From a virus, in IMG/VR virus record IMGVR_UViG_3300028197_000003, positions 32,001 through 96,000 of that record: a stretch of DNA of 64,000 nt; one strand, given 5' to 3'. The notes below the pieces were generated by a model. It was not told where the DNA came from. It made no database searches and was given only the letters and a program-made list of their open reading frames with translations. Positions 1 through 64,000 of the stretch are shown here, piece after piece. The stretch's first letter is position 1; each line of letters begins with the position of its first letter. The translations under genes and the position numbers were made by a program.

Positions 1-5
1 GCACT

Positions 6-3000
6 GTGCTAAAACCAAATACACAGCACTTTGCATATTGGAATGGTACTGATATGACAGATGATAACTCATATGTTGTACCTAAACTGATTGAGGTTAC
101 TCCTGGAAGTGGTTCTTTCCAGATCGGTGAAGCAATCCGTGGATATGCTTTTAGCAATCAAGTAAACAGTCAAGGATTTGACATTCGTTTCCGTCTTGCT
201 TCACCAAACCATAAGGATGGTCCATTCAATTCTCCGACCATCATTTATAACCAAAACCCATACAACACTAATGTGGGTCTGTCTTCTGCATACTCTGAGA
301 CTACTACCGTACTGAACGTTGACACTCAGGCATTGAACCAAAAGTCTGATGCTAATTTCTTTGGCACTCTGCAGACTGGTATGGTTTTGGTAGGAGAGTC
401 CAGTGGTGCTCAAGCAACTGTTGCAGATGTTCGTCTGATTACTGACGAAACTGGATGTGTCCAAGGTTGTTATTACATCCCAGGAGACCTGTTCAGGGAC
501 GGGGATCACACTGCATCAATGCGTCAAGTTCGTCCTGAGAATTTGATTCCTGGTAAGAACGTTAGTATTACTAGTTCTGAGTTCTTCAGTGAAGGTTTTG
601 AGATCACTGAGACAACTGTGATCAGAACAGAACCTGCTCTGCCTGAACCAGTGATCAACAACATTACTAATATTACTAACAATACTACAAATAACATCAC
701 CAATGTTACAAATAACGTTCGTAACGTCCAGAACGTCCAGAATGTTACAAACGTTACAAACGTTCAGGAGAACAACAACGACGATCCTTTGGCACAGTCC
801 TTTGTAGTTACTGATAGTCCTGGTATTTTCATGACTGGTGTGGATATGTTCTTCCAGAGCAGATCTGAAACCATTCCACTCAAGGTTCGTATTGTTCCTT
901 TGGAAAATGGTTATCCTTCTGTGAAGGTGATGAAGCATAGTGAAGTTGAATTGAACCCAGATCAAGTCAATATTTCTAACAACGGTTCTGTTCCTACTCG
1001 CTTTACTTTCCCTGCACCTGTCTACCTGCCTGCAGGTGACTATGCTTTCTATCTTGGTTCTGCATCTGGTGATTATGACGCCTGGATTTCTCAGGTGGGT
1101 GAATCAGACATCAACACTCTGAACATCAACCAGTTCCAAAAAGTTGTAGTTGCTAAGCAACCTGCTCAAGGGTCTTTGTTCAAAGCACAGAGCAACAACA
1201 CCTGGACTGCTTCACAGTTAGAAGACTTGAAGTATGTGTCTTATAAAGCAAAGTTCACTGCAAATACAGCAAGCATTCGACTTTATAATCCACAACTAAA
1301 TCTCTACGGCACAAGAAACAAACTTCCAACTAACCCAGTTGAAACATTTGCTAAGCGGGTGTTTGTTGGTCTATCCTCCGGTATGGAGAACAACCCTCAT
1401 ATCGTTGAGGGAACCATCGTGTCTCAAGCAAATAACACTACCGCTCGCGGTGTGGTTGCTGAGAAATTATCTCACCTGGGAGTTGCTGCAAACACAATCA
1501 AAATCACTAATTCGGGTTCTGATTATGAAGATGGCACTTACAGCAACGTTTCTTTACTGACCGTCACTGGTCGTGGTCTGTCTGGAGTTGGCATTGTAAC
1601 CGTCAGTAGTGGTGCTATCACCCAAGCAACCGTCAAGGGATTCCAAACTGGAGAAGGTTATAAAGTTGGTGATACTCTGACTGCCAACCTTGGTACTAAG
1701 GGTCTAGGAAACAACCTTCTTCTAACTGTTGGTGTTACCACTGCTGTTAGTGGTTTGGTCTTGACCAATGTGTCAGGTTCTGATTTCAATACTAGTGATG
1801 CAGTCTCTTATATTCCTACTGCTGGTGCTGGTGTTGGTATTGCTTCAGTGCAGGGGGCAATTGTTCCTGACACTGTAACTATCAATACTGATGAGTACGA
1901 TGGTCGCCATTTCAAGGTCAACCATCCCAATCATGGTAACCACTCTGGCACATCGTTTGTGACTCTAGAAGGCATTACTGGTGACAGTGTTCCTACTCGC
2001 CTCAGTGTTGGTTATGCCGCAAGTGTCACCTCTGTTGTGAGTGTGGCAAGCAGTATTGGATTCAACATGTTTGAAGGTGCTCAAGTCACTCCTAGCAATC
2101 CCGGTTTTGCCGTGATTGGTGATGAGATCATCAGTTACACATCTGTTGGTACCAACCAACTGACAGGAACAATTACTCGTAACATTGATAACTCTATTGT
2201 TATGAACCATGAAATTGATGCTCCTGTTCAGAAGTATGAACTTGCTGGCGTCTCCCTCCGTAAGATCAATAAGCAGCATAATTTCACTGATGTCGCTAAT
2301 TCTATTGATGGCAAAATCGGTTTTGATTATTATTATCTGAAGCATGGTGGTAGTAACTTCTTTGCTAAAGATAAAATTGGTGGTGGTGATCGTGGACGTG
2401 GTTCTGCAAACATTGCATTTGATACCGTCAACCCTAACATTGCTCATAGTGCTCCTACCGGCACACAAGTGACAGGCAAAATACGTACCACTTCTGGTAC
2501 TAGTGTGGACGGTTCTGAGGCATCATTCTTGGATCAAGGATTTGAGGACATTTCTTTACTTGGCAAAACTGAGTTCAAAACTACTCGAATCATCGCTTCC
2601 CGCGATAATGAGCAACAGAAGAATACCTTGCTGACTTTGCCTGGTGCTAAGTCCTTCACTTTTGAAGCAACTATGAGTAGTGATAATGAGAATGTGTCTC
2701 CTGTAATTGACGTATTCAAGTCATCTATCCTTACAGAATCTAATCGGATCAACAATCCCGTTTCTAACTATAAGACTGACCGTCGTACTAATGGAACTGA
2801 AGATCCTCACAATATGATCTATCAGACAAAGGAAGTTCTCCTTGAGAACCCTTCCACTTCTCTGAAAGTTCTCTTCGCTACCAACCGCCCTGCTGCAAGT
2901 GACATTCGTGTCTTGTATCGTTTGAAGCGTGAAGACGCTGCTGACTTTGATAAGGTGTTTGAACTGATGCCTGGTTTCAGCAACCTGGATTCGGATGGTG

Positions 3001-3200
3001 ACATCCTCAACGCGAAGAACAACGATGGTAAGACCGACAAGAAGACTTCTGCAAGTCTTGAGGGTCACTTCAATGAGTACGAGTACACCGCAAACAACGT
3101 TCCTGCTTTTACAGCATTCCAAGTGAAGATTGTATTCAATAGCACGAACTCTGCAGAGGCACCCAAACTTCTAGATTTCCGCACCATTGCAGTTGCATAA
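6..3200 (+). CDS. Large virion structural protein, tail/baseplate-associated cyanophage type; probably 5'-truncated by the window edge
   Basis: 1064-aa ORF rich in G/T/S/N; DPLAQSF motif and C-terminal PxLxDFRxIAxA recalled from large T4-like cyanophage structural proteins; no ATG start in the window. Confidence 0.7.
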   Translation: MLKPNTQHFAYWNGTDMTDDNSYVVPKLIEVTPGSGSFQIGEAIRGYAFSNQVNSQGFDIRFRLASPNHKDGPFNSPTIIYNQNPYNTNVGLSSAYSETTTVLNVDTQALNQKSDANFFGTLQTGMVLVGESSGAQATVADVRLITDETGCVQGCYYIPGDLFRDGDHTASMRQVRPENLIPGKNVSITSSEFFSEGFEITETTVIRTEPALPEPVINNITNITNNTTNNITNVTNNVRNVQNVQNVTNVTNVQENNNDDPLAQSFVVTDSPGIFMTGVDMFFQSRSETIPLKVRIVPLENGYPSVKVMKHSEVELNPDQVNISNNGSVPTRFTFPAPVYLPAGDYAFYLGSASGDYDAWISQVGESDINTLNINQFQKVVVAKQPAQGSLFKAQSNNTWTASQLEDLKYVSYKAKFTANTASIRLYNPQLNLYGTRNKLPTNPVETFAKRVFVGLSSGMENNPHIVEGTIVSQANNTTARGVVAEKLSHLGVAANTIKITNSGSDYEDGTYSNVSLLTVTGRGLSGVGIVTVSSGAITQATVKGFQTGEGYKVGDTLTANLGTKGLGNNLLLTVGVTTAVSGLVLTNVSGSDFNTSDAVSYIPTAGAGVGIASVQGAIVPDTVTINTDEYDGRHFKVNHPNHGNHSGTSFVTLEGITGDSVPTRLSVGYAASVTSVVSVASSIGFNMFEGAQVTPSNPGFAVIGDEIISYTSVGTNQLTGTITRNIDNSIVMNHEIDAPVQKYELAGVSLRKINKQHNFTDVANSIDGKIGFDYYYLKHGGSNFFAKDKIGGGDRGRGSANIAFDTVNPNIAHSAPTGTQVTGKIRTTSGTSVDGSEASFLDQGFEDISLLGKTEFKTTRIIASRDNEQQKNTLLTLPGAKSFTFEATMSSDNENVSPVIDVFKSSILTESNRINNPVSNYKTDRRTNGTEDPHNMIYQTKEVLLENPSTSLKVLFATNRPAASDIRVLYRLKREDAADFDKVFELMPGFSNLDSDGDILNAKNNDGKTDKKTSASLEGHFNEYEYTANNVPAFTAFQVKIVFNSTNSAEAPKLLDFRTIAVA
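723..767 (+). repeat. Five tandem 9-nt units encoding N-V-(Q/T)
   Basis: aacgtccag aacgtccag aatgttaca aacgttaca aacgttcag. Confidence 0.9.
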
Positions 3201-3332
3201 ATGAAAGATCAAAGCGATCGTAAGGTCGCTAAGAGAATCATCAAACTTGCAAAGAAAAATCCGGAGTATTACACTCCGGAAGAAATACTTTATGCTAAAA
3301 TGATCAAACGTGTAAATAAAAAGAAAAAATGA
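3201..3332 (+). CDS. Small basic hypothetical protein (43 aa)
   Basis: Not in ORF track; ATG directly after upstream TAA; MKDQSDRKVAKRIIKLAKKNPEYYTPEEILYAKMIKRVNKKKK. Confidence 0.7.
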   Translation: MKDQSDRKVAKRIIKLAKKNPEYYTPEEILYAKMIKRVNKKKK

Positions 3333-3359
3333 GTTGGGGTTTTCTCTGGGAGTTTCTCT

Positions 3360-3554
3360 ATGAACAAGAAGATCAAGGTGAAGGATCATCCGAATCTAGT
3401 GAGGGATCCGAATAATAACGCTATTGTATCCACAGACAAAAGAGGATACCAAAAATATATTGCTGAACGTGAAGAAAAAATTAGCAAAAATAATAAAATT
3501 GCAGAGTTGGAAAAACGACTAGCATATCTAGAGAAAGTATTACTTGAAAGGTGA
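3360..3554 (+). CDS. Hypothetical protein (64 aa)
   Basis: ATG ORF with GGGAG upstream; coiled-coil-like C-terminus. Confidence 0.75.
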   Translation: MNKKIKVKDHPNLVRDPNNNAIVSTDKRGYQKYIAEREEKISKNNKIAELEKRLAYLEKVLLER

Positions 3555-3556
3555 AC

Positions 3557-3564
3557 TATAAATA
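3557..3564 (+). promoter_or_regulatory. T4-type late promoter TATAAATA
   Basis: Exact gp55 consensus about 22 nt before ORF 3587. Confidence 0.85.
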
Positions 3565-3586
3565 ATAGTACCAAAGAACTCGGAAA

Positions 3587-3922
3587 ATGGCAGTCCCCGT
3601 CGTCAATATTCAAATTGAACAGGGGACTCATTTTTCCGCGACATATAATATTACTGGAGCTGATGGGAATCCTTTAGACCTTTCTAATCATAGCATTTCA
3701 GCTAAGATGGGTAAGTATGAAGGTTCTCAAGGTATTGGATTTGGTGTAACTTTCGGTGGCACTCCTTCCCAAGGTAAAATTACTATATCACTTACTGATG
3801 TAGTAAGTGGTATTGTCACTTCTGGTAGATATAATTATGATGTTTTGGCTAAGAATGATATTACCGGAAAGTCCACAAAAGTAATTAGTGGGCAGGCTCA
3901 AGTAAATGCGACGATTACCTGA
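3587..3922 (+). CDS. Small beta-rich virion/baseplate-associated protein
   Basis: 111 aa; IxIEQGxxF...DL...GRYxYDVL pattern of phage baseplate-upper-like domains; late promoter. Confidence 0.55.
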   Translation: MAVPVVNIQIEQGTHFSATYNITGADGNPLDLSNHSISAKMGKYEGSQGIGFGVTFGGTPSQGKITISLTDVVSGIVTSGRYNYDVLAKNDITGKSTKVISGQAQVNATIT

Positions 3923-4302
3923 TGGAAAACCAGTATTTCGTATCACTTTCAAGCGATGGTGGTTTTGCAGTTTCTTTATCTGATGATGGTCTTGCTGCAT
4001 TAGAAGCAGGATCTTTTTCAGTTTCTTTGCAATCTTTAGGAGATACATCTAGTGGAGGAGGAGGTGTGAGTCGGTTATTCAATCTTGATGATGTCAACAC
4101 AACTAATTTGACTGGAGCAACTGACAAGTTTGTTCTAATTTATGATGGTCCATCAAACTCTTTCAAGTTTGTAAACCCAGATGAGGTTGTTGACAATGCA
4201 ATTGCTGACTCACCGGGTCCCGCAGGACTTACTGATACTGCTATTGACTATCTTGACACTGCCCTTGATGACAAGATAGATCTAGATGGTGGAACTTTCT
4301 GA
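3922..4302 (+). CDS. Hypothetical fibre-associated protein
   Basis: 126 aa; start overlaps upstream stop; ends IDLDGGTF. Confidence 0.65.
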   Translation: MENQYFVSLSSDGGFAVSLSDDGLAALEAGSFSVSLQSLGDTSSGGGGVSRLFNLDDVNTTNLTGATDKFVLIYDGPSNSFKFVNPDEVVDNAIADSPGPAGLTDTAIDYLDTALDDKIDLDGGTF

Positions 4303-4315
4303 GTAGTTCTACTTC

Positions 4316-4321
4316 TAAATA
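4316..4321 (+). promoter_or_regulatory. Late promoter TAAATA
   Basis: Core late motif upstream of the 1430-aa fibre gene. Confidence 0.7.
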
Positions 4322-4379
4322 TAGAAGATGAATGCATTCGTGATTCTTCAGTGAATATTCAAAATCACAAATAAAGTAA

Positions 4380-7300
4380 ATGGCTGCACCTGTTTTACAG
4401 TTCAAGCGCGGTAGTCTTGCCGCCCTCCCCGGTCTGCAGGCTGGCGAACCCGGTTGGGTGACCGACAGTTATGACCTTTTTGTGGGTATTGACTCCAATA
4501 CAAGTAACAATAAAGTTGTTGGATCTGCTCGTTACTGGACCCGCGAAGGCACTACATCTGGTAGTGCAGTCCGGATGGTTGAGGGTACGAACAACGGACA
4601 ACACTACGTCTCTTTAGGTGCTCCTGCCGCACTAACTTCTAGTGAGGAGTATATCCTTCCTGCCGCTGCTGTAGCAGGCGGGTACATGAAGGTAGACGGA
4701 TCAGGCAATATGTCCTGGTCTACAGAAATTGATATTGATACCCCTCTCTCGGTGTTGGACATCGACGGTGGTACTGATATTGGTGCTGACCTGGCTGATG
4801 GCGACCTCCTGATTGTTGATGACGGCGGCGGAGGGACGAACCGAAAGACGGCACTGTCTCGCGTCAAGACTTATGTTCTTGGTGGTGGTGCTGGTGCTAG
4901 TTTTGCTGCTATCAATGTTTCTGGCATTGGTTCTATTGCTTTTGTCAAGAGCAGCACTGGTACCTTTACTGGTGTCGTTACTGCCTCTTCCTTTGACGGC
5001 GACCTTGCTACTAGCAACCTGACTGGTACGGTTGCTAATAATCAACTTACTAATAGTACAGTTTCTTTTGGTGGCATTTCACTGGCACTGGGTGCCGCTG
5101 ATGCTACTCCTGCTTTCAACCTGCAAGATGCAACCGGTTATCTGACTTCCAACTTGGTTGGAACGATCACCAATGCTCAGTTGGCTGGTTCGATTGTTGA
5201 TGGCAAACTAAATCAGATCACATCTGCTAATAAGGTTGATGTTTCTGCTATTGACATTGATGGTGCTACCGACATCGGTGCTGACCTAGTTGATGCTGAT
5301 CTTCTGGTTGTAGATGACGGTGCTGGTGGCACCAACCGTAAGACGGCAATGTCCCGCGTCAAGGATTATGTCCTTGGTGGTGGTGCTGGTGCAAAATTCG
5401 TAAACCTCCAGGCAACTGGCATTACGACCACCGTCCAGTTACAAACAGTTGACATCAATGTGTCTGCTGGTGCAACTGTTACCGGTGCTCTTGATGTTGA
5501 TGGTGGTGCAAACATTGCTTCTGGTCTGACCGTAACTGGTGGACTGACTGCAAACTCCGCAATTGTTTCTGACCTGACTGACGGTCGTGTCGTTCTTGCT
5601 GGTACTTCTGGAGAACTGGAAGACAGTGGCAACCTGACCTTCAACGGTTCAACTCTTGCTGTAACGGGTGCTGCAACTGTATCCACAAATCTAGGAGTTT
5701 CTGGAGAGGCAACTCTTGCTTCTGCCACCATTAGTGACCTGACCGATAACCGGGTTCTGATTGCTGGTACTGCTGGTGCAGTTGAAGACAGCGGCAACCT
5801 GACCTTCGACGGTTCTGATCTGGGCGTGACCGGTGATGTCACCGCTTCAGGCACTGTCCAAGCTGCAAACGTCACTGCTACTACCGCAGCAACTCTTGCT
5901 TCTGCTGCTGTCCAAGACCTGACTAATGGTCGGGTGGTTCTGGCAGGTGCTGGTGGTGAACTGGGTGATGACTCTGGTCTTACCTACGGTGACAACGATC
6001 TCCGTGTTACTGGTGGCATCAACGCTACTGGTATTGCCTCTGCTACCTCGTTTGCAACGGGTGCTGAAGGTTCTGCAATCATTGTTACCAGTGACACGAT
6101 CACTGGTCCTTCTTCGATCACCCTTGACCCTGCTGCTCTCAACGACAACAGCGGTACGGTGTTCATTCTAGGTGACCTGCAAGTCAAGGGCACCACGACT
6201 CAAGTTGACTCCACCACGGTTTCTGTTGCCGACTTGGCAATCGAAGTTGCTAAGGGTGCTGCCAACGATGCTGCTGCCAACGGTGGTGGTTTCACGGTTG
6301 ATTCAGGTGATGGTGACAAGACCTTCCACTTTGAAGCACTGGGTGACAACTTCGGTTCTTCTGAAAACCTGAACCTCGCTTCTGGCAAAGTCCTCAAGGT
6401 CGCCAACACTGAGATTCTGAGTGCTGCTGCACTTGCTTCTAGCGTTAGCGTTGACGTTGCTTCCATCAACTTGGATGGTGCAACTGCAATCGGTGCTGAC
6501 CTGGTTGACGCTGATCTCTTCCTGGTTGACGACGGTGCAGGCGGAACGAACCGCAAAATCACTGCTACTGAGATCAAGGATTACATGCTCGGCGGTGGTG
6601 CCGGTGCAAACTTCGCTGCAATCAACGTCTCCGGTATTTCTACCGTTGGGTTCGCTGAAGCTACAACCCTGAAGGTTGGTGCTGGTGCGACTGTCACGGG
6701 TGCTCTTGACGTAGACGGCGGTGCTAACATCGCTAGTGGTTTGGTTGCAAACTCCGCTAAAGTTTCTGACCTAACTTCTGGTCGCGTCGTTCTTGCTGGT
6801 ACTGACGGTGAGATCCAAGACAGCGGCAACCTGACCTTCGATGGTTCTACTGTCGGCGTCACTGGCGGCATCACCGTCTCTGGTGCTGTTGATGCAAACG
6901 GCGGCATGGATGTCGCTGGTGGTTTCGTCGCCAACTCTGCTAAGGTCTCTGACCTGACCTCTGGTCGCATTGTCCTTGCTGGCACTGCTGGCGAACTGGA
7001 AGACAACAGTGCACTTACCTTCAACGGATCAACCTTTGCTGTCACGGGTGCTGCAACTGTCAGCACTAACCTAACGGTTACTCAAGAACTGAGTGCTCGC
7101 GACGCTTCACTACGTAACGTAGTTTCCAGTGGTGTAATTACAGCAACCAACCTTCGCAACGCTGCTGCTGGTCTGCTTCCTCTGGTTGGTGTATCCAGTG
7201 CTTCTGGTCACACCGGCATCGTTACCGGATTCAAGTTCAACGGTACTGGCGTTGAAGCATACAAGGTTGAAGATGGCACTGCAACTGTCACCCTGTCGGG

Positions 7301-8672: not shown

Positions 8673-8676
8673 TAGG

Positions 8677-8682
8677 TAAATA
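8677..8682 (+). promoter_or_regulatory. Late promoter TAAATA
   Basis: Just after the fibre stop codon, upstream of the hairpin. Confidence 0.5.
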
Positions 8683-8697
8683 AAAACCTGATATATA

Positions 8698-8722
8698 GGG
8701 GGAGTTGACTCCCCCTTTTTTT
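8698..8722 (+). terminator. Rho-independent terminator
   Basis: GGGGGAG-ttga-CTCCCCC followed by T7. Confidence 0.9.
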
Positions 8723-31987: not shown

Positions 31988-32428
31988 TGAGTATCTAATT
32001 ACAATCTTTTTATGTTGGGTAGTCTTATCACTACACTGGTAATGCGTTACTTTACCGTTTAGTAGACCAGTTGCTCTAGCAATGAGATCCATAGCAGCAA
32101 GTCTATCTGCTTCAGGACCTGCTTCAGGTTTCATTCTATGCTTCTTCCACATCTCAGCAACCATATCAACATTATGAACAACACCAATATGTTGTGGTGG
32201 TTGTGATTGCCACTCGTCTAGTTTCTCTTGCGTAGTATCTTGAATATTGAAAGGAGTATCACTTTCAATAAATTCTTCGTTCATTTTTTTATATGTTTCT
32301 GGCGTAATTTTCATATTGTTTTTCATTGACCAACAGGGTTTACAGAGAGGAACCATCCTCAATTGAGGGCACTGATCCGCTGGAGTTAGTTTACCACAAG
32401 AACTACATTCTATCTCCCACATTTTCAT
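31985..32428 (-). CDS. Hypothetical protein with N-terminal CxxC...CxxC
   Basis: 147 aa; CSSC and CKPC; start uncertain. Confidence 0.55.
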   Translation of the reverse strand: MKMWEIECSSCGKLTPADQCPQLRMVPLCKPCWSMKNNMKITPETYKKMNEEFIESDTPFNIQDTTQEKLDEWQSQPPQHIGVVHNVDMVAEMWKKHRMKPEAGPEADRLAAMDLIARATGLLNGKVTHYQCSDKTTQHKKIVIRYS

Positions 32429-46303: not shown

Positions 46304-47200
46304 ATGAAGTGTCTTGTAACAGGCGGTGCTGGATTCATCGGATCCCATATCGTTTCACGTCTTCTTCGTGATAATCATGAAGTCGTAGTCATTGATAACG
46401 AATCAGCGGAAGCAAACGATGCTTTCAACTGGTACGAGAATGACGTAGAGAACCATATCGAAGACATTCGTGACATCGAAGCATGTCGCCATATCTTCAA
46501 GGGTGTTGAGGTTGTGTTCCATTTGGCAGCACACTCTCGAATCCAATTAGCAATGGAGAATCCTTTTGATTGTGTTACCACAAACGTGGTAGGAACCTGC
46601 AACATGCTTGAACTTGCACGAGAAGTAGGTGTGAGTAGGTTTATCAATTCTTCTACTTCTTCTTCGTATGGTTTGAATAATCAACCACCTTTGATTGAGT
46701 TCATGCCTTCTGATTGTTTGAATCATTATTCAGCAAGTAAGGTATCTGCAGAGAAGTTCTGTTATATGTACTATCGTTTGCATATGTTGCGGACAGTATC
46801 TCTCCGATACTTCAACGTTTACGGTCCTCGTCAACCTTTGAAGGGACCATATGCACCGGTCATTGGTCTGTTCCAAGAACAGAAACGTCGTGGTGAACCT
46901 ATGACCATCGTTGGTGATGGTGAGCAACGTCGTGACTTCACTCACGTCGATGATGTAGTCGAGGCAAACATTTGTGCCATGAATAATTTGATTTCTATTG
47001 AATCAATCAACATTGGTACAGGAACTAATTACTCTATGAATCAAGTTGCTGACATGATTGGCGGTGATAGAGTTTATATCCCAGCACGTAAAGGAGAATC
47101 TAGAGAAACTCTTGCGGATATCTCAAGAGCTAAATCTATGCTAGGATGGGAACCTAAGATTACATTAGAGGATCAACTTACAAATCATGATCAACTTTGA
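46304..47200 (+). CDS. NAD-dependent nucleotide-sugar epimerase/dehydratase (extended SDR)
   Basis: TGGAGFIG; YSASK; LRYFNVYGP; RDFTHVDD. Confidence 0.92.
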   Translation: MKCLVTGGAGFIGSHIVSRLLRDNHEVVVIDNESAEANDAFNWYENDVENHIEDIRDIEACRHIFKGVEVVFHLAAHSRIQLAMENPFDCVTTNVVGTCNMLELAREVGVSRFINSSTSSSYGLNNQPPLIEFMPSDCLNHYSASKVSAEKFCYMYYRLHMLRTVSLRYFNVYGPRQPLKGPYAPVIGLFQEQKRRGEPMTIVGDGEQRRDFTHVDDVVEANICAMNNLISIESINIGTGTNYSMNQVADMIGGDRVYIPARKGESRETLADISRAKSMLGWEPKITLEDQLTNHDQL

Positions 47201-47705
47201 CAATATCAATCTTGAAGAATTTTTTGGTTGCGTTGACGCAACTAATACTCCTCAGATGAAGTCAAATACTTTCAAGACAATTCGTACATGGTTACAAGAA
47301 AATTCATTCGCTAAGTGGAGTAACGGACAAGTAGATTACGTTGGTGATTACATGGATGGTGTGGACTTCAAGTCTGCTGAACATAATTACGAGATGAAAG
47401 GAACTCTCGGTATGTTCAATAAGAATGGCAGCACCAAAAGTGTTGTGTTGAAAAACTTCCGAGGTGATGTCTCATTTGTAGATAAAACCTTTGACTACAT
47501 GCTTTTGGTGGACACTAGGAATATGTCTATCGCAGTCACTGATTGGGAAACTGTTGAGAAACGTACCTATTACACTCCATCTTCCCCTTGTGCCAAGTTC
47601 AAACTAGAACCGGGGGACTATACTATGCTGGCAGAGAACGTCACTCCTTCTACTAAAAACACTACAGCAGACGTTCTCCTCAATAACTTCCAAGACATTC
47701 TTTGA
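47187..47705 (+). CDS. Putative PD-(D/E)xK endonuclease
   Basis: LQE...DGVDF...YEMKG spacing fits the E...D...ExK pattern; abuts dam. Confidence 0.45.
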   Translation: MINFDNINLEEFFGCVDATNTPQMKSNTFKTIRTWLQENSFAKWSNGQVDYVGDYMDGVDFKSAEHNYEMKGTLGMFNKNGSTKSVVLKNFRGDVSFVDKTFDYMLLVDTRNMSIAVTDWETVEKRTYYTPSSPCAKFKLEPGDYTMLAENVTPSTKNTTADVLLNNFQDIL

Positions 47706-48526
47706 TGGCACTCGCCAAAACTCCTCTTCGTTATCCCGGTGGTAAATCCCGTGCAACTACACAGATCTACAATCATCTGCCTCGCCTGTCTGGTTATAGG
47801 GAGTATCGTGAATGTTTCTTGGGTGGAGGATCAATGGCGATCTTCATCACACAAAAATACCCTACCCTCCCCGTCGTCTGTAGTGACCTCTACGAACCCT
47901 TAGTCAACTTTTGGATCCATCTTCGCGACGACGGGGAAAAGATGGCAGAAGATCTTCTAAAACTAAAGCGACAGCACGACAATCATGAGTCTGCTCGTGA
48001 ACTATTCATCGAATCTAAGAGACTACTCAATGACGAATCCAATAATGACTCTTTACTGCGTGCTGTCAGTTTTTATATTATCAATAAGTGTTCTTTTTCT
48101 GGTCTCACCGAGTCGTCCTCCTTCAGCAAACAAGCAAGTGTCTCCAACTTCAGTGAACGGGGCATCATGCGACTGCCAACAACTTCCAAAATAATTCGTA
48201 ATTGGACTATCTTACATCAGTCTTACGAGAAGTTATTGGAAGGAGATGATGCTTTGGTATACCTTGACCCTCCCTATGACATCAAGGACAACTTGTATGG
48301 TAAGAAAGGTGGTATGCATAAAGGATTTGATCATGATAAGTTTGCTCGTGACTGCTGCTGGTCTAGCAACGATTGCATCATTAGTTACAACTCAGATCAA
48401 CTAGTCCAAGAACGATTTGAAAATTGGAAAGCAGCAGAGTTTGATCTTACATACACCATGAGATCAGTCGGTGAGTATATGAAGGATCAAACAAAAAGAA
48501 AAGAGTTGTTACTTATGAACTATTAG
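47705..48526 (+). CDS. dam: DNA adenine methyltransferase (D12 class, Dam-like)
   Basis: LRYPGGKS; FLGGGS; YLDPPY. Confidence 0.92.
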   Translation: MALAKTPLRYPGGKSRATTQIYNHLPRLSGYREYRECFLGGGSMAIFITQKYPTLPVVCSDLYEPLVNFWIHLRDDGEKMAEDLLKLKRQHDNHESARELFIESKRLLNDESNNDSLLRAVSFYIINKCSFSGLTESSSFSKQASVSNFSERGIMRLPTTSKIIRNWTILHQSYEKLLEGDDALVYLDPPYDIKDNLYGKKGGMHKGFDHDKFARDCCWSSNDCIISYNSDQLVQERFENWKAAEFDLTYTMRSVGEYMKDQTKRKELLLMNY

Positions 48527-54973: not shown

Positions 54974-54974
54974 C

Positions 54975-55985
54975 ATGGACTTTTTCAAAGACATCATCAA
55001 GGAGATTGGAGATGACTTCACCAAACTCGCATCGGATGTTGACGATACGGAGCGATTTGTTGACACTGGTTCTTACATTTTCAATGCCCTTGTTAGTGGC
55101 AGCATTTATGGGGGAATTAGTGGTGACAGAATTACCGCTATTGCAGGTGAAACCTCAACAGGTAAAACTTTCTTCTCTCTCGCTGTAGTCAAAGATTTTC
55201 TAGAGAAGAACCCTGATGGTGGGGTCATGTATTTTGATACAGAATCTGCTATCAAGAAGAACATGCTGGTGGCACGTGGCATTGACTTGCAGAGGTTTGG
55301 TCATGTGCAGGTTGTAACAATTGAGCAGTTCCGAAACCGAGCACTAAAGATTGTAGACAAATACCTAAGTATTCCTGAAGGTGATCGCAAACCCATGATG
55401 TTTGTCCTAGATTCTCTAGGCATGCTTTCCACTGAAAAGGAGATCAGAGATGTCCTTGAAGACAAGCAAACTCGCGACATGACTAAAAGTCAACTTGTCA
55501 AGGGTGCTTTCCGTATGCTCACACTCAAACTAGGTCAAGCTCATGTGCCGCTCATTGTCACCAACCATACGTATGATGTCATCGGAGCTTACGTACCAAC
55601 TAAAGAGATGGGAGGAGGTTCTGGACTCAAGTATGCAGCAAGTACAATCATCTATCTCAGTAAGGCAAAGGAGAAGGATGGAACAGAGATCGTCGGAAAC
55701 ATTATCAAGGCTAAGACAGTCAAGTCTCGTTTGAGTCGTGAAAATAAGGTTGCTGCTATTCGTCTTTATTACGACGAACGTGGTCTTGATCGCTACTACG
55801 GTCTACTGGATCTTGGTGAGTCCTCTGGTGTGATCAAGAAAGTTGGTAACAGGTATGAGATTGACGGTAAAAAGGTGTATGCTAAAGAGGTATACTCCAA
55901 TCCTGAAAAGTATTTCACGGAAGATCTTATGTCTCAACTCGATGAGGCGGCACAAAAAGAGTTCACTTACGGTGGGGGTGAATGA
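54975..55985 (+). CDS. uvsX: RecA-like recombinase
   Basis: AGETSTGKT; FDTE; MGGGSGLKYAAS. Confidence 0.96.
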   Translation: MDFFKDIIKEIGDDFTKLASDVDDTERFVDTGSYIFNALVSGSIYGGISGDRITAIAGETSTGKTFFSLAVVKDFLEKNPDGGVMYFDTESAIKKNMLVARGIDLQRFGHVQVVTIEQFRNRALKIVDKYLSIPEGDRKPMMFVLDSLGMLSTEKEIRDVLEDKQTRDMTKSQLVKGAFRMLTLKLGQAHVPLIVTNHTYDVIGAYVPTKEMGGGSGLKYAASTIIYLSKAKEKDGTEIVGNIIKAKTVKSRLSRENKVAAIRLYYDERGLDRYYGLLDLGESSGVIKKVGNRYEIDGKKVYAKEVYSNPEKYFTEDLMSQLDEAAQKEFTYGGGE

Positions 55986-57370: not shown

Positions 57371-57762
57371 ATTTTTCTAGTTACCAACACTTTGTAAACA
57401 CAGTGACAAGTAAAGAATCACAAGATTCTGATGCTTTCATCTATCGTTTGCAAGAACTTGGTAGCGAAATTCCAATCCAACGTCTTCTAACTGCTGCTGT
57501 AGGCATCTCTGCTGAAGGTGGTGAGTTTACGGAGATCGTAAAGAAAATGATTTTCCAAGGCAAACCTGCTAATGAGGAAAACTTGTACCACCTAAAGCGG
57601 GAATTGGGTGATGTAATGTGGTATGTGGCACAAGCATGCATGGCACTGGACGTGGACATGAATGAAGTGCTAGATATGAATATCAAAAAACTGGAATCCC
57701 GTTTCCCCGAGGGTACTTTCAGTGAGTTCTATTCAGAGAATCGTAAAGATGGAGACATCTAA
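57361..57762 (+). CDS. mazG: MazG-family nucleotide pyrophosphohydrolase
   Basis: EGGEFTEIVKK; ELGDVMWY; KLESRFP. Confidence 0.93.
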   Translation: MGVDFSSYQHFVNTVTSKESQDSDAFIYRLQELGSEIPIQRLLTAAVGISAEGGEFTEIVKKMIFQGKPANEENLYHLKRELGDVMWYVAQACMALDVDMNEVLDMNIKKLESRFPEGTFSEFYSENRKDGDI

Positions 57763-58438
57763 TCTTTGCATAACCTGCATCAAAATTGGAGACAAATTTG
57801 ATGCAGGTTATGTGAACAAACTCTATGATATGGTGCATCGTCAGATTGATGTACCATTTTTTTGTTTTACTGATAACCCTAGTGGCATCAAAGAAGGTGT
57901 TACTGTGGTTGAGATTGATGTTACTGAATATTCTCAATGGGAGAATTGGTGGCCAGCATGGTGGAAGATCAATATGTTTGTCCGCCCTGAAATACAGGAC
58001 TTCAAACGTAAAATCTTCTTTGATTTGGATGTGATTATCCATGGAGATCTTAGTAAAATTTATGAATTCAATAGTCCATTTGCTTTGGTCTATTCTTCTT
58101 GGAAAGGATTACAATTCCAAGTCAAAAACCCAACCAAATCGATGTTCAATTCCAGTGTAATTGCATGGGATGATGCAAAGCACATTTATGATCATTGGAT
58201 GCAGGATGCTAAGGGATTCGTTGCCAAGTATGCTGGAACTGATGACTTCTATCATAACGAAAAGATCAAAAGATATCGTCTCCCACCTATCATCTACTCA
58301 TATAGGGATGGTTGTATTCCAGGGCAACAAAATTGTTTAGAATTTAGACCATGGATGGGACTTGCTATTCTCCATCAGCACCCTAAGAACCATGAACTAG
58401 ACCCAAATATACATATTATTGCTAGGTATTGGGGATAG
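57749..58438 (+). CDS. Glycosyltransferase-like protein (GT-A fold)
   Basis: KIGDKF..GYV; WWKINMF; FFDLDVII (DxD); HQHPKNH. Confidence 0.7.
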   Translation: METSNLCITCIKIGDKFDAGYVNKLYDMVHRQIDVPFFCFTDNPSGIKEGVTVVEIDVTEYSQWENWWPAWWKINMFVRPEIQDFKRKIFFDLDVIIHGDLSKIYEFNSPFALVYSSWKGLQFQVKNPTKSMFNSSVIAWDDAKHIYDHWMQDAKGFVAKYAGTDDFYHNEKIKRYRLPPIIYSYRDGCIPGQQNCLEFRPWMGLAILHQHPKNHELDPNIHIIARYWG

Positions 58439-58440
58439 TA

Positions 58441-59538
58441 ATGGCAAAGATTGATCCAAAGCATCTCAAGAAATATACTGTCAAGTGGATTCTTTCTAAT
58501 GAACCACTTGATTTTTTTATGAGAATTGCTAAGTCATTCGAGCATCATATGGATCGCCGCATGCCTGGTAGAGTCAATTTTGAAATTATGTCTGCTCAAG
58601 AGTATGCAGTCAAGTATAATGATGGAGTTGAGATTGATCATGATGATGTGCTTAGATTGTTGAAAGAAAATGAGATCCAACTAGCAGATTTTCCTGCACC
58701 TTTGTTTGCACAAAAGATCAAAGAGCGTTATCAGAATCGTCAAACTAGGGGGAAAGATTTAGATTTTGTTGAAAGTGATTGGTCAAGCATTGAAATGCCA
58801 TTTCTTTTTAGAAATGAAACGCATGCCACTGCGTTTATGCAGTCCCATATGGGTGAACAACTTCTTTACTATCGTAATCAGTTGAAAGTAAAACCTATGG
58901 CAATGGTGTCTTGGGGTGGATCTAAATTGATTGCTGGGGACAAACCCTATATGTCACCTGAGGATTTTGAAGGTAGTAAAGTTAGTCTCCAATACCATAC
59001 TGCAGTAGCAGAGAAAATTTTTGAGTCTTTGGGTGCTGAGGTCACTGATTCTGACGCTGATGCATATGAGACAGACATGCCCTCCTTTGATATGTCTAAG
59101 AAGGTGGTTACTGAACTGAATCACAGCATCAATACTAATATTATCCTTGCATCTCATGAGTTCTGGAGGAATGTAATCAAGTGTGAGTGTGATTACAGAG
59201 AGCATACTAAAGAAGAAGAGGACGGTTGTCTAAGAAAACAATTGAAACGTGCATGCAATGAAGCAACACGTGATAGAGACGTGTGGAATGATGAAATGAC
59301 TGCTAAGTTTAGGCAAGAATGTGAGTCAAGAGGCATTGAGTTACATCAGGTATCTGACTCCACTCCTTTCAAAGAAAAGACTGCTTCTGTATATGATCAG
59401 TTTGTAAAATTCTTCTATGACGAACAGTTTATTGACAGTGAAAGTGAGGTTGTCAAGCATGACCTCAGAACAAGAGTCAATGATTTGTCTGACAACAGTA
59501 GAAGTGCTTGGTGTGACGACCTTACTATTGACCAATGA
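58441..59538 (+). CDS. dctP: Second DctP-like substrate-binding protein, no signal peptide
   Basis: IEMPFLF; PEDFEG; FESLGA; shares W..EP..F.R.A..F and KYN.GV with 11958-12914. Confidence 0.7.
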   Translation: MAKIDPKHLKKYTVKWILSNEPLDFFMRIAKSFEHHMDRRMPGRVNFEIMSAQEYAVKYNDGVEIDHDDVLRLLKENEIQLADFPAPLFAQKIKERYQNRQTRGKDLDFVESDWSSIEMPFLFRNETHATAFMQSHMGEQLLYYRNQLKVKPMAMVSWGGSKLIAGDKPYMSPEDFEGSKVSLQYHTAVAEKIFESLGAEVTDSDADAYETDMPSFDMSKKVVTELNHSINTNIILASHEFWRNVIKCECDYREHTKEEEDGCLRKQLKRACNEATRDRDVWNDEMTAKFRQECESRGIELHQVSDSTPFKEKTASVYDQFVKFFYDEQFIDSESEVVKHDLRTRVNDLSDNSRSAWCDDLTIDQ

Positions 59539-59840
59539 ACGAAGAACTAATTGACTCCATCATCAAGATGTACCGATCAACCTCAGAAGGTAGTCGGAGG
59601 ATGACAAAGAAACGACGAATGAATAGTTTTTGTCGTTTTGTATTGGCGCTTACTAGCAACGATAAATACAAAGAGTACCAAACACCTTTGATGGTGTGGG
59701 TTCAGAAGTATCAGGATCAAATTTACAGCAAACTAAGTGAAGAAGTTCTCGACCTTCATAACCGAAGCCCGCGTTACCAAAGCATCGCAAGAAGCGAAGC
59801 GTTTGGGACTAGTCGGGGACGGTCACGGCGATTGGTATGA
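59535..59840 (+). CDS. Hypothetical protein (101 aa)
   Basis: ATGA-coupled; 3' end overlaps the next ORF. Confidence 0.55.
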   Translation: MNEELIDSIIKMYRSTSEGSRRMTKKRRMNSFCRFVLALTSNDKYKEYQTPLMVWVQKYQDQIYSKLSEEVLDLHNRSPRYQSIARSEAFGTSRGRSRRLV

Positions 59841-60633
59841 CCGCCAAGGAAACCTAAAAGCAAAAACTGTCTCAGGTTTACTTCAAATGTACTCAGCATC
59901 TGCTGGGGATAAGGATGGACTTGGTACGTCAGGATCTAAAGCAGCATCGGTTGTAGCAAAAAGGACTACCGGTGATGGTGAAGACTATGGTAGGAAGGTA
60001 GCAACAGGGGGACCGTCATCTGCGGAACCCAATCCTAATTCCGCCAATGGACAAGCAAAAGCAGCACTCCAACAGGTCAGTCGGGATAACCCCCTTACAA
60101 TTGCCTTTGATAAGTTTGACTCTGACGAGGTAACTGCTAATATACTAGCCACAGTGGAAGAAATTTCCGGTGGCACTTACTACTATGTGTTTCCCAGTAG
60201 GGACACAAACATTCAAGAACTAAAAAATGCATATCCTGAGATTGGCGATGCCTTCGTTGATGACGCAAATGCAGAGACCATCTACGATGTCCTCTCCTCA
60301 CTCTATGAAAACGGTTTTGACGCGATTAGTATCGTTGTACGACAGTCAAGAGCAAAAGAAATCTCAGAGTTAGCACTCAAAGGGAACGGTCAACTATACA
60401 ACTATGTGATGCTAAACGTCATCCCTGTAGATGAACGTAGTGTTCGTGAACAGTATATTGCGGGTGATATTTTCCAGAACGGATCCTTTATTGAGTCTAA
60501 TGGAAAGACGGGGCAAGTGTTCCGTAGAGGTGCTAATCATCTGATCTGTATGGGTGAAGATAAGAAAATTTTTAGAGCATGGATTTCCGACTCTAAACAA
60601 GTAGATAAGTTTCTGTTACCCCAAGACTTTTGA
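59737..60633 (+). CDS. Degenerate cytidyltransferase-like protein with capsid-targeting-like N-terminus
   Basis: MKKFSTFITEA; LTIAFDKF where a TFGRFNPP...GH motif would be expected; REQYIAGDIF tail. Confidence 0.55.
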   Translation: MKKFSTFITEARVTKASQEAKRLGLVGDGHGDWYDRQGNLKAKTVSGLLQMYSASAGDKDGLGTSGSKAASVVAKRTTGDGEDYGRKVATGGPSSAEPNPNSANGQAKAALQQVSRDNPLTIAFDKFDSDEVTANILATVEEISGGTYYYVFPSRDTNIQELKNAYPEIGDAFVDDANAETIYDVLSSLYENGFDAISIVVRQSRAKEISELALKGNGQLYNYVMLNVIPVDERSVREQYIAGDIFQNGSFIESNGKTGQVFRRGANHLICMGEDKKIFRAWISDSKQVDKFLLPQDF

Positions 60634-60638
60634 CACAC

Positions 60639-60644
60639 TAAATA
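60639..60644 (+). promoter_or_regulatory. Late promoter TAAATA
   Basis: Upstream of ORF 60672. Confidence 0.7.
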
Positions 60645-60671
60645 ATTGAACGGTAAAATTACGTTCGTAAG

Positions 60672-62354
60672 ATGAGTAACCCTTGGGCACAGACGTATAA
60701 TGAATTGCGTCGTCCTTATCTTGAAGAGAAGAAGGCAAAGAAAGATCATGATGGTGACGGCAAAGTAGAAAGCGGTTCAAAAGAACACGCTGGTGCTGTT
60801 CACAATGCTATCCAACGTGCCAAGGGTGGTAAAGCGGATGGTCAGGACACTCGTAAAGAAGCATTCAGCATGGCTGCTGACCCTGAGAAACGGGCACTAC
60901 CTCGTCCTACTAGTAAGGCAGAGAATAAAAAAAGTATGAGCATGAGGTCTCGTGCTGTAAAGGCAGTGGGTACTCAGCGTCGCCAAGATAAGGAAGTTGG
61001 TATTTCTGGGAAGAAAAACCCAAGAGCACACGCTAAAGAAAGTGTCTGGGCTGGTAATTATCAAGGTCCTCTTTATGCTTCTTGGACTGCCGTCGAAGAA
61101 GGCAAGAAACAAATGCCTATGGTAAAGATGTACCGTAAGGCAGGTAATCTTGGACGTGATGGAAGTCCAGAGGCAATGGAACGTTCCAAGAAAATCACTG
61201 GTGTGATGAACGCTAACGCTGAAAGGCGTGCTGCTCATCGTGCAAAGGATGATGCTGCCAAGGATGCCAAGGCATCAAAGAAGATGAAAAAAGAAGAGGT
61301 TGAAGTAGAAGGTTACGTTCCTATGGATTCTGCAAAGAAGGAAAAGATTGGTCGTCAGTCTAATAAAGCTTATGCTAAGGAAGTTGTTGCTGCTCGTCAT
61401 GGTAAAGAAAAGGAGGCCAATAAGCAGATGCAACGTCGGATTGCAATGCAGGATCCTGCAGGACGTAAAGCATCACTAAAGAAAGAAGAAACTGCTATTG
61501 AAGAAGGCAGCATGTCAACAGCACGTAAAAACGTTGGTGCTTCTACTTGCTGGAAGGGTTACAAGGCAAAGGGAACCAAGAGCAAGGGTGGTCGTACTGT
61601 CCCCAATTGTGTCAAGGAACGTTCTGACTGGCGTGAAGAAATGGGGGATGACGGTTTTTTTTCCGAAGCCGCTAAGCGTCAAAATGATTTAGACATCAAG
61701 ACGAGCGGCGTCAAAAACAAAATTGAGATCAACCCTGAGATCAAAACTGAAGGTGTCGATAAGCGAAGAGCACCAGCAGAACTAGTTGCACGAATGAGTG
61801 CAAAAAGAGAAGGTGAGATGGCGCATGATGGTCCTAACAAACCAGCATCTGATGCTAAAGCACGGATCATGGCGAAGACTAAAAAAAAACGTGAGCAGGC
61901 AAAAGAAAACATCATGAAGGGTCCTCTTCTTCCTGGCGAAGGACGTAAGGTATTCCCTAAGGGTGCTGCACCTAAAGCGACTGGTGCAAAACTGCCTCTT
62001 CAAACGGCATCATATAATCCTATGCTTGACTCTGTAGAAGCACAAGCACTCCAGATGTTTGAGCGTACTCGTTACGCTAAAGAGAAAGGTACAGATTCTC
62101 AGACTGGTAAAGAGTCTAAGAGTGGTGGAACTATCAAACCTGGATCTGCTATGTCCAAGGTTCGTAAGAGTCTTGCTGGTCAAGGTCTAATGTCCTCTCG
62201 TGGCAAAGCGATCCAACCGCAAGGTAAAAAGAAGGATAAAGGTGCTAAAGGTTATCAAGGACAAACACCTGTAGATAAGATCAAGGGAAACCTTGCACGT
62301 AAGAGAGCACCAAAACCTAACCCATATAAACCACGTGCTGGGGAGTCTGATTGA
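60672..62354 (+). CDS. Basic low-complexity putative internal head protein
   Basis: 560 aa, K/R/A-rich; KKDHDGDG and CWKGYK...VPNCV modules. Confidence 0.65.
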   Translation: MSNPWAQTYNELRRPYLEEKKAKKDHDGDGKVESGSKEHAGAVHNAIQRAKGGKADGQDTRKEAFSMAADPEKRALPRPTSKAENKKSMSMRSRAVKAVGTQRRQDKEVGISGKKNPRAHAKESVWAGNYQGPLYASWTAVEEGKKQMPMVKMYRKAGNLGRDGSPEAMERSKKITGVMNANAERRAAHRAKDDAAKDAKASKKMKKEEVEVEGYVPMDSAKKEKIGRQSNKAYAKEVVAARHGKEKEANKQMQRRIAMQDPAGRKASLKKEETAIEEGSMSTARKNVGASTCWKGYKAKGTKSKGGRTVPNCVKERSDWREEMGDDGFFSEAAKRQNDLDIKTSGVKNKIEINPEIKTEGVDKRRAPAELVARMSAKREGEMAHDGPNKPASDAKARIMAKTKKKREQAKENIMKGPLLPGEGRKVFPKGAAPKATGAKLPLQTASYNPMLDSVEAQALQMFERTRYAKEKGTDSQTGKESKSGGTIKPGSAMSKVRKSLAGQGLMSSRGKAIQPQGKKKDKGAKGYQGQTPVDKIKGNLARKRAPKPNPYKPRAGESD

Positions 62355-63316
62355 TGAAAAGTTTTAGAGATTTCTTTGAAGATGTAGAACTTACTGACGC
62401 ATATGGTGAGACTTTTGCTGTCATTCATGACGTAGTAAAAGTTGAACCATTGAAACGTGCTAGATTCCCGAACGCCCCATTCCGTGAGGACGATGTAAAT
62501 GAGGTAGAGGAAGGTGCTGCCATGACCCAACAGGGTAGGGCAGAACATATGGCACAGCGGATGTTGAACCAGGCAAAGGGTGCTGCTGTCAGATATGATG
62601 CTGCTAAACAAGCAGCAAAGACTGTGAAAACCACAAGTGGTAGTACGAAAACCCGTGTAATGGAGAAATTCAAAACTCAATATGGTAAGAAAGATAAGAT
62701 GGCTCAGTCTTCTGAAAGGAAGACTTTGGGTCGTCGTTCTTCTACTAAAGATGGGTCTAAGCCAACTGGTTACGAATCTCCAAAAGAATTTCGTGACAAG
62801 TCTATGCCTCTCCGTAAATTCCGTGACCGGTTTCAAAAAGAAGGTGTTATTACTGGTGCATTAGCAGGTGCTGCATTGGTTGGCGGTGTTGCTTCTATGA
62901 TGAATAATGCAAAGAAAGCTACAAGTAAAGATAATCATAGTGATAAATCAGTTGGTAAACCAACTCTTCAGGGTGTAGCATCTGGGATTAGAAATAGAAA
63001 TGCTGCTTTGAAAAAGGCAATGAACAATTCTTTTGATCCCATTTCGTCTGGTGTTTCTATTTTTCTTGAAGGAAGTGCCTGGACAAAAAAGTCCGGGAAG
63101 AATCAGGAAGGTGGTCTCAATGAAAAAGGACGCAAGTCTTATGAGAAAGCAAATCCTGGTTCTGACCTAAAAGCACCCACGAAAACTAAGGGAAATCCTC
63201 GTCGTTCTTCGTTCTGTGCACGCATGAAGGGAATGAAAAGCAAGTTGACTTCTAAGAAAACTGCATCTGATCCAGATAGCAGAATCAATAAGTCACTTCG
63301 TAAGTGGGATTGCTGA
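62354..63316 (+). CDS. Basic modular putative internal head protein
   Basis: MKSFRDFFED; C-terminal AWT.K.GKN..GGLNEKGRKSY...SFCARM...LRKWDC module. Confidence 0.65.
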   Translation: MKSFRDFFEDVELTDAYGETFAVIHDVVKVEPLKRARFPNAPFREDDVNEVEEGAAMTQQGRAEHMAQRMLNQAKGAAVRYDAAKQAAKTVKTTSGSTKTRVMEKFKTQYGKKDKMAQSSERKTLGRRSSTKDGSKPTGYESPKEFRDKSMPLRKFRDRFQKEGVITGALAGAALVGGVASMMNNAKKATSKDNHSDKSVGKPTLQGVASGIRNRNAALKKAMNNSFDPISSGVSIFLEGSAWTKKSGKNQEGGLNEKGRKSYEKANPGSDLKAPTKTKGNPRRSSFCARMKGMKSKLTSKKTASDPDSRINKSLRKWDC

Positions 63317-63345
63317 ATATATAGTGTGATGTTGCAATGTAACTG

Positions 63346-63546
63346 ATGGCTTTTTTACTTCCACTCGCATCCAAAATTCTGATGGATGCTGTCGCCAAGA
63401 TTCCCGAGAATGAGGAACTGGGCGAACTTATGATCAACGTTTGCGTCACCATTCTTCGCAAGGCGGTTTCAATGACTAAAACTGAGATGGATGACATCCT
63501 CCTCGAACAAGTTGTTGCTGCTATCAAAGTAAAGGACGACGCCTAA
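63346..63546 (+). CDS. Hypothetical protein (66 aa)
   Basis: ATG ORF, helical. Confidence 0.65.
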   Translation: MAFLLPLASKILMDAVAKIPENEELGELMINVCVTILRKAVSMTKTEMDDILLEQVVAAIKVKDDA

Positions 63547-63548
63547 CC

Positions 63549-63554
63549 TAAATA
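63549..63554 (+). promoter_or_regulatory. Late promoter TAAATA
   Basis: 27 nt before ATG 63582. Confidence 0.7.
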
Positions 63555-63581
63555 TCTAAACGACTAACCTACGAGAAACAC

Positions 63582-64000
63582 ATGGCACTTTGGGGAGCAT
63601 CTGACGCAGACGAATCTAAACCCAAGAATCTGACTGCTGCCGAAAAGAAAGAAGTTTATGCTGCCGAAGCAGGTTGGGTCCTCCGTGGCGGGTCTACTCT
63701 CACCGGTTGTGACAATACCAATGCTACACCTGAAGTGCTGGTCGCTATTAGCGGTCTAGCAGTTTCTATTGGTGCTGCTGATATTACTGACATCAGACTG
63801 ATTACTTCATCCTTCAGCAAAGCTGCTGGTGGTACATTGTCTGTTCGCGTTTCGTTCAACGAAGAAGTGGATGTTACTGGCACCCCTCAACTCGAAGTTG
63901 TCAACGATACCAATAGCAACCACACCCTTTCCTATCTCTCAGGTACGGGCACCTATCGTCTCCTGTTTACGCTCGCCATTGCTGCTAACAATGCCGCAAC
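63582..64000 (+). CDS. Virion structural protein, 3'-truncated by the window edge
   Basis: Not in track (no stop); MALWGASDADESKPK...FNEEVDVTGTPQL; late promoter. Confidence 0.65.
   Translation, partial: MALWGASDADESKPKNLTAAEKKEVYAAEAGWVLRGGSTLTGCDNTNATPEVLVAISGLAVSIGAADITDIRLITSSFSKAAGGTLSVRVSFNEEVDVTGTPQLEVVNDTNSNHTLSYLSGTGTYRLLFTLAIAANNAA

Follow-up and report, generated by a model that had tools for sequence, protein, structure and literature searches.

Genome-wide absence of TTAA from a marine T4-like cyanophage and its association with a phage-encoded PD-(D/E)xK nuclease family

The DNA analysed here is a stretch of 64,000 bp (hereafter the window) that covers positions 32,001 to 96,000 of the IMG/VR virus record IMGVR_UViG_3300028197_000003. 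The source record comprises 192,351 bp, is rated complete by CheckV and represents the genome of a marine T4-like cyanomyovirus that shares only ~72–74% DNA identity with any isolate. The tetranucleotide TTAA is absent from the window as well as from the remainder of the genome. Two genes for PD-(D/E)xK nuclease-like proteins are discussed in relation to this absence: open reading frame (ORF) 47187, which is paired with a DNA methyltransferase gene inside the window, and a second gene farther downstream in the genome, here termed nuclease-2 (Table 1).

Table 1 Location of the features discussed in the text
Feature	Position	Strand	Length	Remarks
TTAA-free stretch	window 1..64000 = genome 32,001-96,000	.		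part of 192,351-bp genome without any TTAA
Nuclease-2, PD-(D/E)xK	genome 187,729-188,271 (L356:3729-4271), outside window	+	180 aa	E54, D77, E86-x-K88
ORF 47187, PD-(D/E)xK nuclease-like	window 47187..47705	+	172 aa	invariant D60, E69, K71
DNA methyltransferase, alpha/D12 class	window 47702..48526	+	274 aa	RYPGGK, FLGGGS, DPPY intact; overlaps ORF 47187 stop

An initial annotation, made from the letters of the window alone, had suggested that TTAA is purged from it, and exact counting confirms this claim. TTAA occurs 0 times per 64,000 bp at 58% A+T, whereas base composition predicts 447 occurrences, a first-order model 350 and a second-order Markov model 223, in agreement with the several hundred sites that the annotation had anticipated at about 58% A+T. 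It had also named two outcomes that would speak against a purge, a near-expected TTAA frequency or a general depletion of TTA or TAA, and neither holds: since TTA (892) and TAA (962) are both common in the window, the loss of TTAA is not due to an overall shortage of these trinucleotides. The other palindromic tetranucleotides that had been listed as present do occur, with AATT, TATA, ATAT and GATC close to expectation, CTAG at ~0.8 and GGCC at ~0.3 of it. Across the whole genome, 0 TTAA sites stand against 693 expected under a Markov model (z = -26). In the coding sequence, 100 within-gene synonymous codon shuffles yielded 819±21 sites (minimum 756), compared with 0 in the actual genes; this gene-aware null was built on 228 crudely called genes and substantiates the codon-level dodging of TTAA that the annotation had described. 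TTAA is thus depleted beyond what either composition or codon usage predicts. The 10.7 kb of intergenic DNA are likewise free of the tetranucleotide, and no T precedes any of the 77 TAA stop codons, although it does so at 29 TGA stops.

The bases found in place of TTAA reveal how it was lost. At 439 orthologous sites at which TTAA-normal relatives possess TTAA, the phage carries TCAA, TTGA, TAAA, TGAA, CTAA or one of many other words, depending on the reading frame, and the encoded amino acids are kept at 61% of the replaced sites. Because these replacements are diverse, frame-dependent and mostly synonymous, they reflect recoding and not a base-calling artefact. Selection against TTAA is still acting, as not one of the 420, 2,966 and 949 substitutions that distinguish the phage from three relatives gives rise to the tetranucleotide, compared with 10, 46 and 19 expected gains, and zero gain was reached in none of 500 simulations. 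Some sequencing platforms can make systematic errors at methylated motifs, and the genome is a metagenome assembly; a systematic miscall at a modified site, or else a neutral mutational bias that destroys TTAA, might therefore be considered. We nonetheless regard the probability of either as practically negligible. Contigs that match the window exactly occur in independent public runs, several independent studies give identical or near-identical contigs, and independent metagenome contigs of 79–96% DNA identity also have 0 TTAA. Moreover, a cultured and independently sequenced phage shares the absence of TTAA, close relatives of like composition have normal TTAA frequencies, and neither the pattern of replacements nor the abundance of TTA and TAA is expected from an artefact.

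Depletion of TTAA is phylogenetically confined. In a tree of 81 portal sequences, it is limited to a single clade (16 rows, support 100); there, the present phage and the two contigs nearest to it lack the site altogether and the sister group displays observed/expected (O/E) ratios of 0.09–0.46, whereas all rows outside this clade have ratios near 1. The median over cyanomyovirus loci outside the depleted clade is near 0.97, and the isolates DSL-LC03, Sf-CH5 and S-SSM7 together with two single-cell viral records range from 0.8 to 1.1.

Nuclease-2 measures 176 residues when counted from the start codon common to its relatives, and neither it nor its relatives in the cultured phages S-ShM2 and S-SSM4 match a Pfam family. 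The four putative catalytic residues given in Table 1 are invariant in 22 of the 22 aligned family members. As judged from the AlphaFold2 model (predicted local distance difference test, pLDDT, 90.7), the protein is predicted to possess a restriction-endonuclease-like α/β core fold; its best Foldseek matches in the PDB are I-Ssp6803I, NhoI, Eco15I-N, EcoRV and PvuII, with E values of 5e-4 to 1e-2 and moderate TM-scores of 0.4–0.5. An adjacent cognate methylase was sought in this genome by a PF01555 family search and by tblastn, which returned no match and no remnant, respectively. Among those TTAA-free phages in which the methylase has degenerated or disappeared, the ratio of nonsynonymous to synonymous substitution rates (dN/dS) of nuclease-2 is 0.09–0.23, and the gene is hence under purifying selection after methylase loss.

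The loss of TTAA follows the nuclease-2 family. Homologues that are 39–86% identical were located at 37 IMG/VR loci with a G+C content of 34–46%, and all 37 loci are TTAA-depleted, their O/E ratios spanning 0–0.90 with a median of 0.11; six close relatives are TTAA-free altogether (0 versus 348 expected). The family was not found in four complete records of TTAA-normal phages. At 25 of the loci, the stop codon of the nuclease gene is overlapped by an intact PF01555 β-class methylase gene with a DPPY motif, whose nearest solved relatives are M.MboIIA, M.RsrI and CcrM, and further downstream there is often another methylase, with an SPPY motif. TTAA O/E ratios at these intact-methylase loci are 0–0.81, with zero attained at only 2 of the 25. 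By comparison, all eight loci at which the methylase is absent or degenerate (L363–L368, L393 and L396) lack TTAA, with 0 sites versus 363 expected overall. The methylase is missing at L363, L364, L393 and L396 as well as in the genome studied here; at the other four loci it is degenerate, with TEPPSG or TEPPPG at the DPPY position, two segments deleted from its interior and motif I changed. Longer contigs extend this series of methylase decay: G003, with a degenerate methylase and a portal 89% identical to that of the present phage, has 0 of 321 expected TTAA sites, G001 (133 kb, intact methylases, gp44 79% identical) has 114 of 574, and G002 has 298 of 671. On the family tree, zero TTAA requires at least four independent changes, and rows whose methylase has been lost or has degenerated belong to at least three separate lineages inside the main clade, in addition to S-ShM2 outside it; two of those lineages are single loci on long branches. 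Regarding the distribution of sites within G001 (L425–L431), none of its 114 TTAA sites lies in the first 16.3 kb, which hold the nuclease and methylase genes, and its TTAA depletion is therefore uneven along the genome.

Cultured isolates carry only distant members of the nuclease-2 family, which are 31–36% identical and belong to the ‘T4-GC 685’ gene cluster. S-ShM2, whose host is Synechococcus WH8102, possesses a solitary family member (SShM2_059) without any PF01555 gene and has 0 of 329 expected TTAA sites in the 100 kb sampled. S-BM3 carries a truncated copy and retains 45 of 323 sites.

The best explanation for these observations, and in our judgement a likely one, is that the phage nuclease-2 targets TTAA, that the phage is immune to it by the absence of sites and that the cognate methylase has been lost. 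Nuclease-2 would then be a small Type IIP-like PD-(D/E)xK endonuclease with TTAA as its target. In the ancestral state, it would have been encoded together with an overlapping β-class N6-adenine methylase (DPPY), often joined by the SPPY methylase. Carriers of such a pair already avoid TTAA, likely because methylation would be unable to shield fast-replicating phage DNA fully against an enzyme that the phage itself encodes. In the present lineage the purge would have been completed, upon which the methylase would have become useless, to degenerate in some relatives and to be deleted in this genome, and the nuclease would have been retained under purifying selection. The genome would be immune through its lack of sites, host DNA would stay cuttable, as probably would that of co-infecting phages, and each new TTAA would be removed by selection. 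Three points of this account are inferences: that nuclease-2 cuts TTAA, which is suggested by the depletion of this word in the genomes that carry it, that its victim is host or rival DNA, and that selection came chiefly from nuclease-2 and not from an enzyme of the host. A phage nuclease combined with immunity by site absence was one of two mechanisms put forward in the initial annotation. The mechanism is favoured by our data in that nuclease-2 tracks TTAA loss; the gene then named for it, ORF 47187, is not (see below).

Several observations weigh against this explanation. The link between nuclease-2 and TTAA cleavage is correlational and in part reflects shared ancestry. L372 and L373 are TTAA-free even though their methylase is apparently intact. 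The degenerate methylase-like ORF of two relatives (L365:8534-9157 and L366:8534-9157) still has a dN/dS of 0.18 between them, and it may therefore keep some function, possibly a non-catalytic one, instead of being a decaying pseudogene. P-SSM7 encodes a distant family member together with two methylases, yet its TTAA frequency is normal (0.97), and S-SSM4, with a solitary member, is near-normal as well (0.89), from which it follows that the nuclease-2 family has more than one specificity. The support gained from S-ShM2 is indirect, because its family member is 31% identical and falls outside the main clade. In S-SSM4 (NC_020875.1; L403, L419-L423), the homologue CYXG_00024, which adjoins a helicase gene, coincides with a complete lack of TCGA (0 of 178 expected in the 100 kb sampled), so that this phage may follow the same strategy with a different word.

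A further point against nuclease-2 as the sole agent is that TTAA is not the only word missing. The genome is devoid of AGTACT, TTCGAA, GACGTC and GTCGAC, of which 35, 19, 18 and 15 copies are expected; under the codon-shuffle null, 28–58 copies each of AGTACT, TTCGAA and GACGTC are expected. No phage nuclease was identified for any of these four words, and TTCGAA and GACGTC are absent from Sf-CH5, S-SSM7 and AG-345-F15, too. In addition, the RGCY words AGCT, GGCT, AGCC and GGCC are each reduced to 0.21–0.31 of expectation (RGCY overall 0.27). Other NGCN words are less depleted, and this CviJI-like pattern is common to many cyanomyoviruses. The four missing words and the scarcity of RGCY indicate that restriction avoidance of the host type is also at work. 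As a side observation, CCGG is near-absent in S-ShM2, S-BM3, P-SSM7 and S-SSM4 (1 of 66, 0 of 59, 0 of 37 and 0 of 71 expected), and P-SSM7 additionally lacks CGCG and GCGC; in the window of the present phage, CCGG is near normal, with 71 copies versus 85 expected.

Such a multi-site profile, part of which recurs in unrelated cyanophages, is typical of host restriction and brings up the classical alternative, namely that natural hosts or another external agent possess an MseI-like TTAA cutter and that the phage escaped by losing every site. The phage nuclease/methylase module would in that case be incidental, or the methylase would be a former counter-defence. Graded TTAA depletion across one phage clade is what varying host exposure would produce. 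Staphylococcus phage K is free of GATC. Precedents for the total disappearance of a 4-base site under host restriction exist among surveyed phages (Rusinov et al. 2018, PMC6286503). However, S-ShM2, with zero TTAA, and Sf-CH5, with 0.82 of expectation, share the isolation host Synechococcus WH8102, and this strain therefore seems not to impose TTAA loss. TTAA depletion goes with the nuclease-2 family in distant lineages, zero TTAA follows the loss of the methylase, and TTAA-normal phages exist without the family. On the host side, no nuclease-2 homologue was found among the 401 picocyanobacterial genomes searched, and ten sampled picocyanobacterial genomes show no avoidance, their TTAA O/E ratios being 1.0–1.6 with 0.4–14 sites per kb. 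A literature search returned no report of a cyanobacterial TTAA system or of TTAA avoidance by cyanophages. Finally, purifying selection on the nuclease after methylase loss would be unexplained for a passenger gene. The host enzyme of MseI-like specificity that the initial annotation had offered as its other mechanism is weakened by the contrast between the two WH8102 phages, by the negative result in the 401 genomes and by the host TTAA frequencies; as the principal cause we deem it unlikely, with an appreciable chance left to it, and a host TTAA enzyme may have acted as a co-driver alongside nuclease-2.

The initial annotation had pointed to ORF 47187 as the candidate TTAA nuclease. Its product has no match in Pfam or NCBIfam. 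The AlphaFold2 model (pLDDT 86) finds its best Foldseek matches in the PDB among restriction endonucleases, namely Eco15I-N/NhoI, DpnI, ThaI, NaeI and PvuII. Together with this predicted fold, the PD-(D/E)xK motif, an overlap with the methylase gene like that in type II restriction-modification operons and the presence of the ORF 47187 family with one distinct methylase clade at 16 of 16 TTAA-free loci of its sample make the assignment plausible at first sight. The suggested correlation of TTAA loss with this family was computed and leads to a different view. Of 83 loci with the ORF 47187 family, 16 have zero TTAA, and the remainder range from 0.49 to 1.16; pooled over 67 loci that carry the family, the O/E ratio is 0.92, level with the 0.93 of phages that have neither gene. 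For GGCC, on the other hand, the ratio at the 67 loci is 0.20 versus 0.73 in phages lacking both genes. The pair of ORF 47187 and methylase occupies the interval between gp44 and gp62 in many cyanomyoviruses and occurs in TTAA-normal phages, for example at 104 of 106 and 208 of 213 expected TTAA sites, and a homologue 88–91% identical to the copy of the TTAA-free relatives is found in TTAA-rich phages. Conversely, the gp44-gp62 locus of strongly depleted sister-clade phages holds a methylase gene but lacks that of the nuclease, and the strongly TTAA-depleted contig G001 contains no ORF 47187 copy in its 133 kb. On the gp44 backbone tree the TTAA-free phages all fall into one clade, and common descent therefore accounts for the association of ORF 47187 with zero TTAA. 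We therefore rejected ORF 47187 as the TTAA agent, the family being present in TTAA-normal phages and missing from G001 and its partner being of the GGCC type; that it cuts TTAA, with or without the neighbouring methylase, is highly improbable.

The window methylase is the sole D12 methylase of the genome and matches PF02086 (E 3e-27, 96 bits). Its best solved homologue is M.CbeI (7M6B), aligned over the full length with an E value of 4.5e-45, compared with only 2.5e-5 for DpnM; EcoDam and T4 Dam gave no match in the same comparison. In TTAA-free phages the enzyme keeps every catalytic motif, with motifs X, I and IV (DPPY) all recognizable, and several clade-specific residues agree with M.CbeI; a ‘dead’ methylase is accordingly not supported. 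In a manual alignment, Glu or Gln occupies the position of an EcoDam arginine that we take to contact guanine. M.CbeI, DmtB and M.Ssp6803II methylate GGCC at N4 (PMC8616854, PMC3425538, PMC6105098), and GGCC has O/E ratios of 0.13–0.24 in phages that carry the window-methylase family versus 0.73 in those with neither gene, its depletion being strongest in phages with the M.CbeI-like methylase. As far as can be judged from sequence comparison, the window methylase is probably a GGCC (N4-methylcytosine) methylase and not a TTAA or GATC one, and ORF 47187 and the methylase constitute a separate, probably GGCC-directed module.

A pattern scan of genome contigs detected no prokaryotic homologue of ORF 47187. 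A profile search of 1.84 billion proteins gave 83 clusters; the ten that were examined all derive from metagenome assemblies and lack an informative name, and two genomic contexts examined are phage-like and uninformative on TTAA. For the window methylase, the top matches in genome contigs are phage-like contigs in metagenome-assembled or single-cell genomes, and the cyanobacterial matches are 30–37% identical, which does not settle the specificity. In one case (L277, L444), the phage-type methylase is carried by contig JBJBBP010000001.1 (193,981 bp), which is binned in a Synechococcus metagenome-assembled genome; with 38.6% G+C compared with 53.5% in the main contig, it looks like a cyanophage genome inside a Synechococcus bin. 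The module is also mosaic: the L124 nuclease is 96% identical to that of L118, whereas the L124 methylase is 80% identical to that of the present phage and only 64% to that of L118, and this mismatch indicates recombination between the nuclease and methylase genes. L273, an 18.5-kb phage contig (IMG 3300021356), encodes a remote ORF 47187 homologue with no methylase detected, and it contains 0 of 24 expected ACGT, 0 of 35 AGCT and 0 of 7 CCGG sites.

Site avoidance and virus-borne restriction-modification are both known already. In the literature searched, a restriction enzyme that has no methylase and whose carrier is immune through complete erasure of its sites appears to be undescribed. A broader proposal, which we consider evenly balanced, is that T4-like cyanophages use solitary 4-base cutters against host DNA, rival DNA or both, with elimination of the word replacing methylation. 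The words would vary (TTAA here and in S-ShM2, possibly TCGA in S-SSM4), and the path would lead reproducibly from the nuclease-methylase pair through depletion and purge to methylase decay or loss. T4 tells its own DNA from that of the host by modified bases. How cyanomyoviruses spare their own unmodified DNA during breakdown of the host chromosome would, if the proposal is true, be answered for one lineage by erasure of the target word. It would further imply that a restriction enzyme can be stably retained without any methylase, and that the genome-wide loss of a word can serve as a readout of the specificity of uncharacterized phage nucleases. The idea is directly testable, since the cultured S-ShM2, together with its sequenced host Synechococcus WH8102, shows the same pattern. 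On the practical side, it might yield novel small 4-base cutters as well as a marker of phage-phage competition in the ocean.

Chloroviruses such as PBCV-1 are lytic viruses that encode type II restriction-modification systems. They resemble the case described here as lytic viruses with nuclease/methylase pairs of the 4-base-cutter type that can degrade host DNA and spare viral DNA; in contrast to chlorovirus DNA, which is protected by methylation, the genome of the present phage has no cognate methylase gene, and its protection would consist in the lack of sites. MseI and Tru9I are Type IIP enzymes that cleave T^TAA and are accompanied by an N6-adenine methylase. Nuclease-2 is similar to them in its putative target TTAA, as deduced from genome composition only, in its small size and in the adenine-type β-class PF01555 methylase that accompanies it in relatives. 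The window methylase, for its part, resembles M.CbeI, DmtB and M.Ssp6803II (PMC3425538, PMC6105098; PDB 7M6B) in its full-length match, its PF02086 assignment, its DPPY motif and the GGCC depletion of its carriers. It differs in being ~35–40% identical, with a predicted activity and target, and in that the phage M.CbeI-like methylase is often coupled to a small nuclease of the ORF 47187 family, which has not been reported for the cyanobacterial orphan methylases. With known instances of palindrome avoidance by phages (PMC6286503), the present genome shares the genome-wide removal of a short palindrome, synonymous recoding and purifying selection. However, whereas a host enzyme is the selective force in those cases, the loss of TTAA tracks a phage-borne nuclease family, its exact zero coincides with the loss of the phage methylase, and a phage of the same host keeps a normal TTAA frequency.

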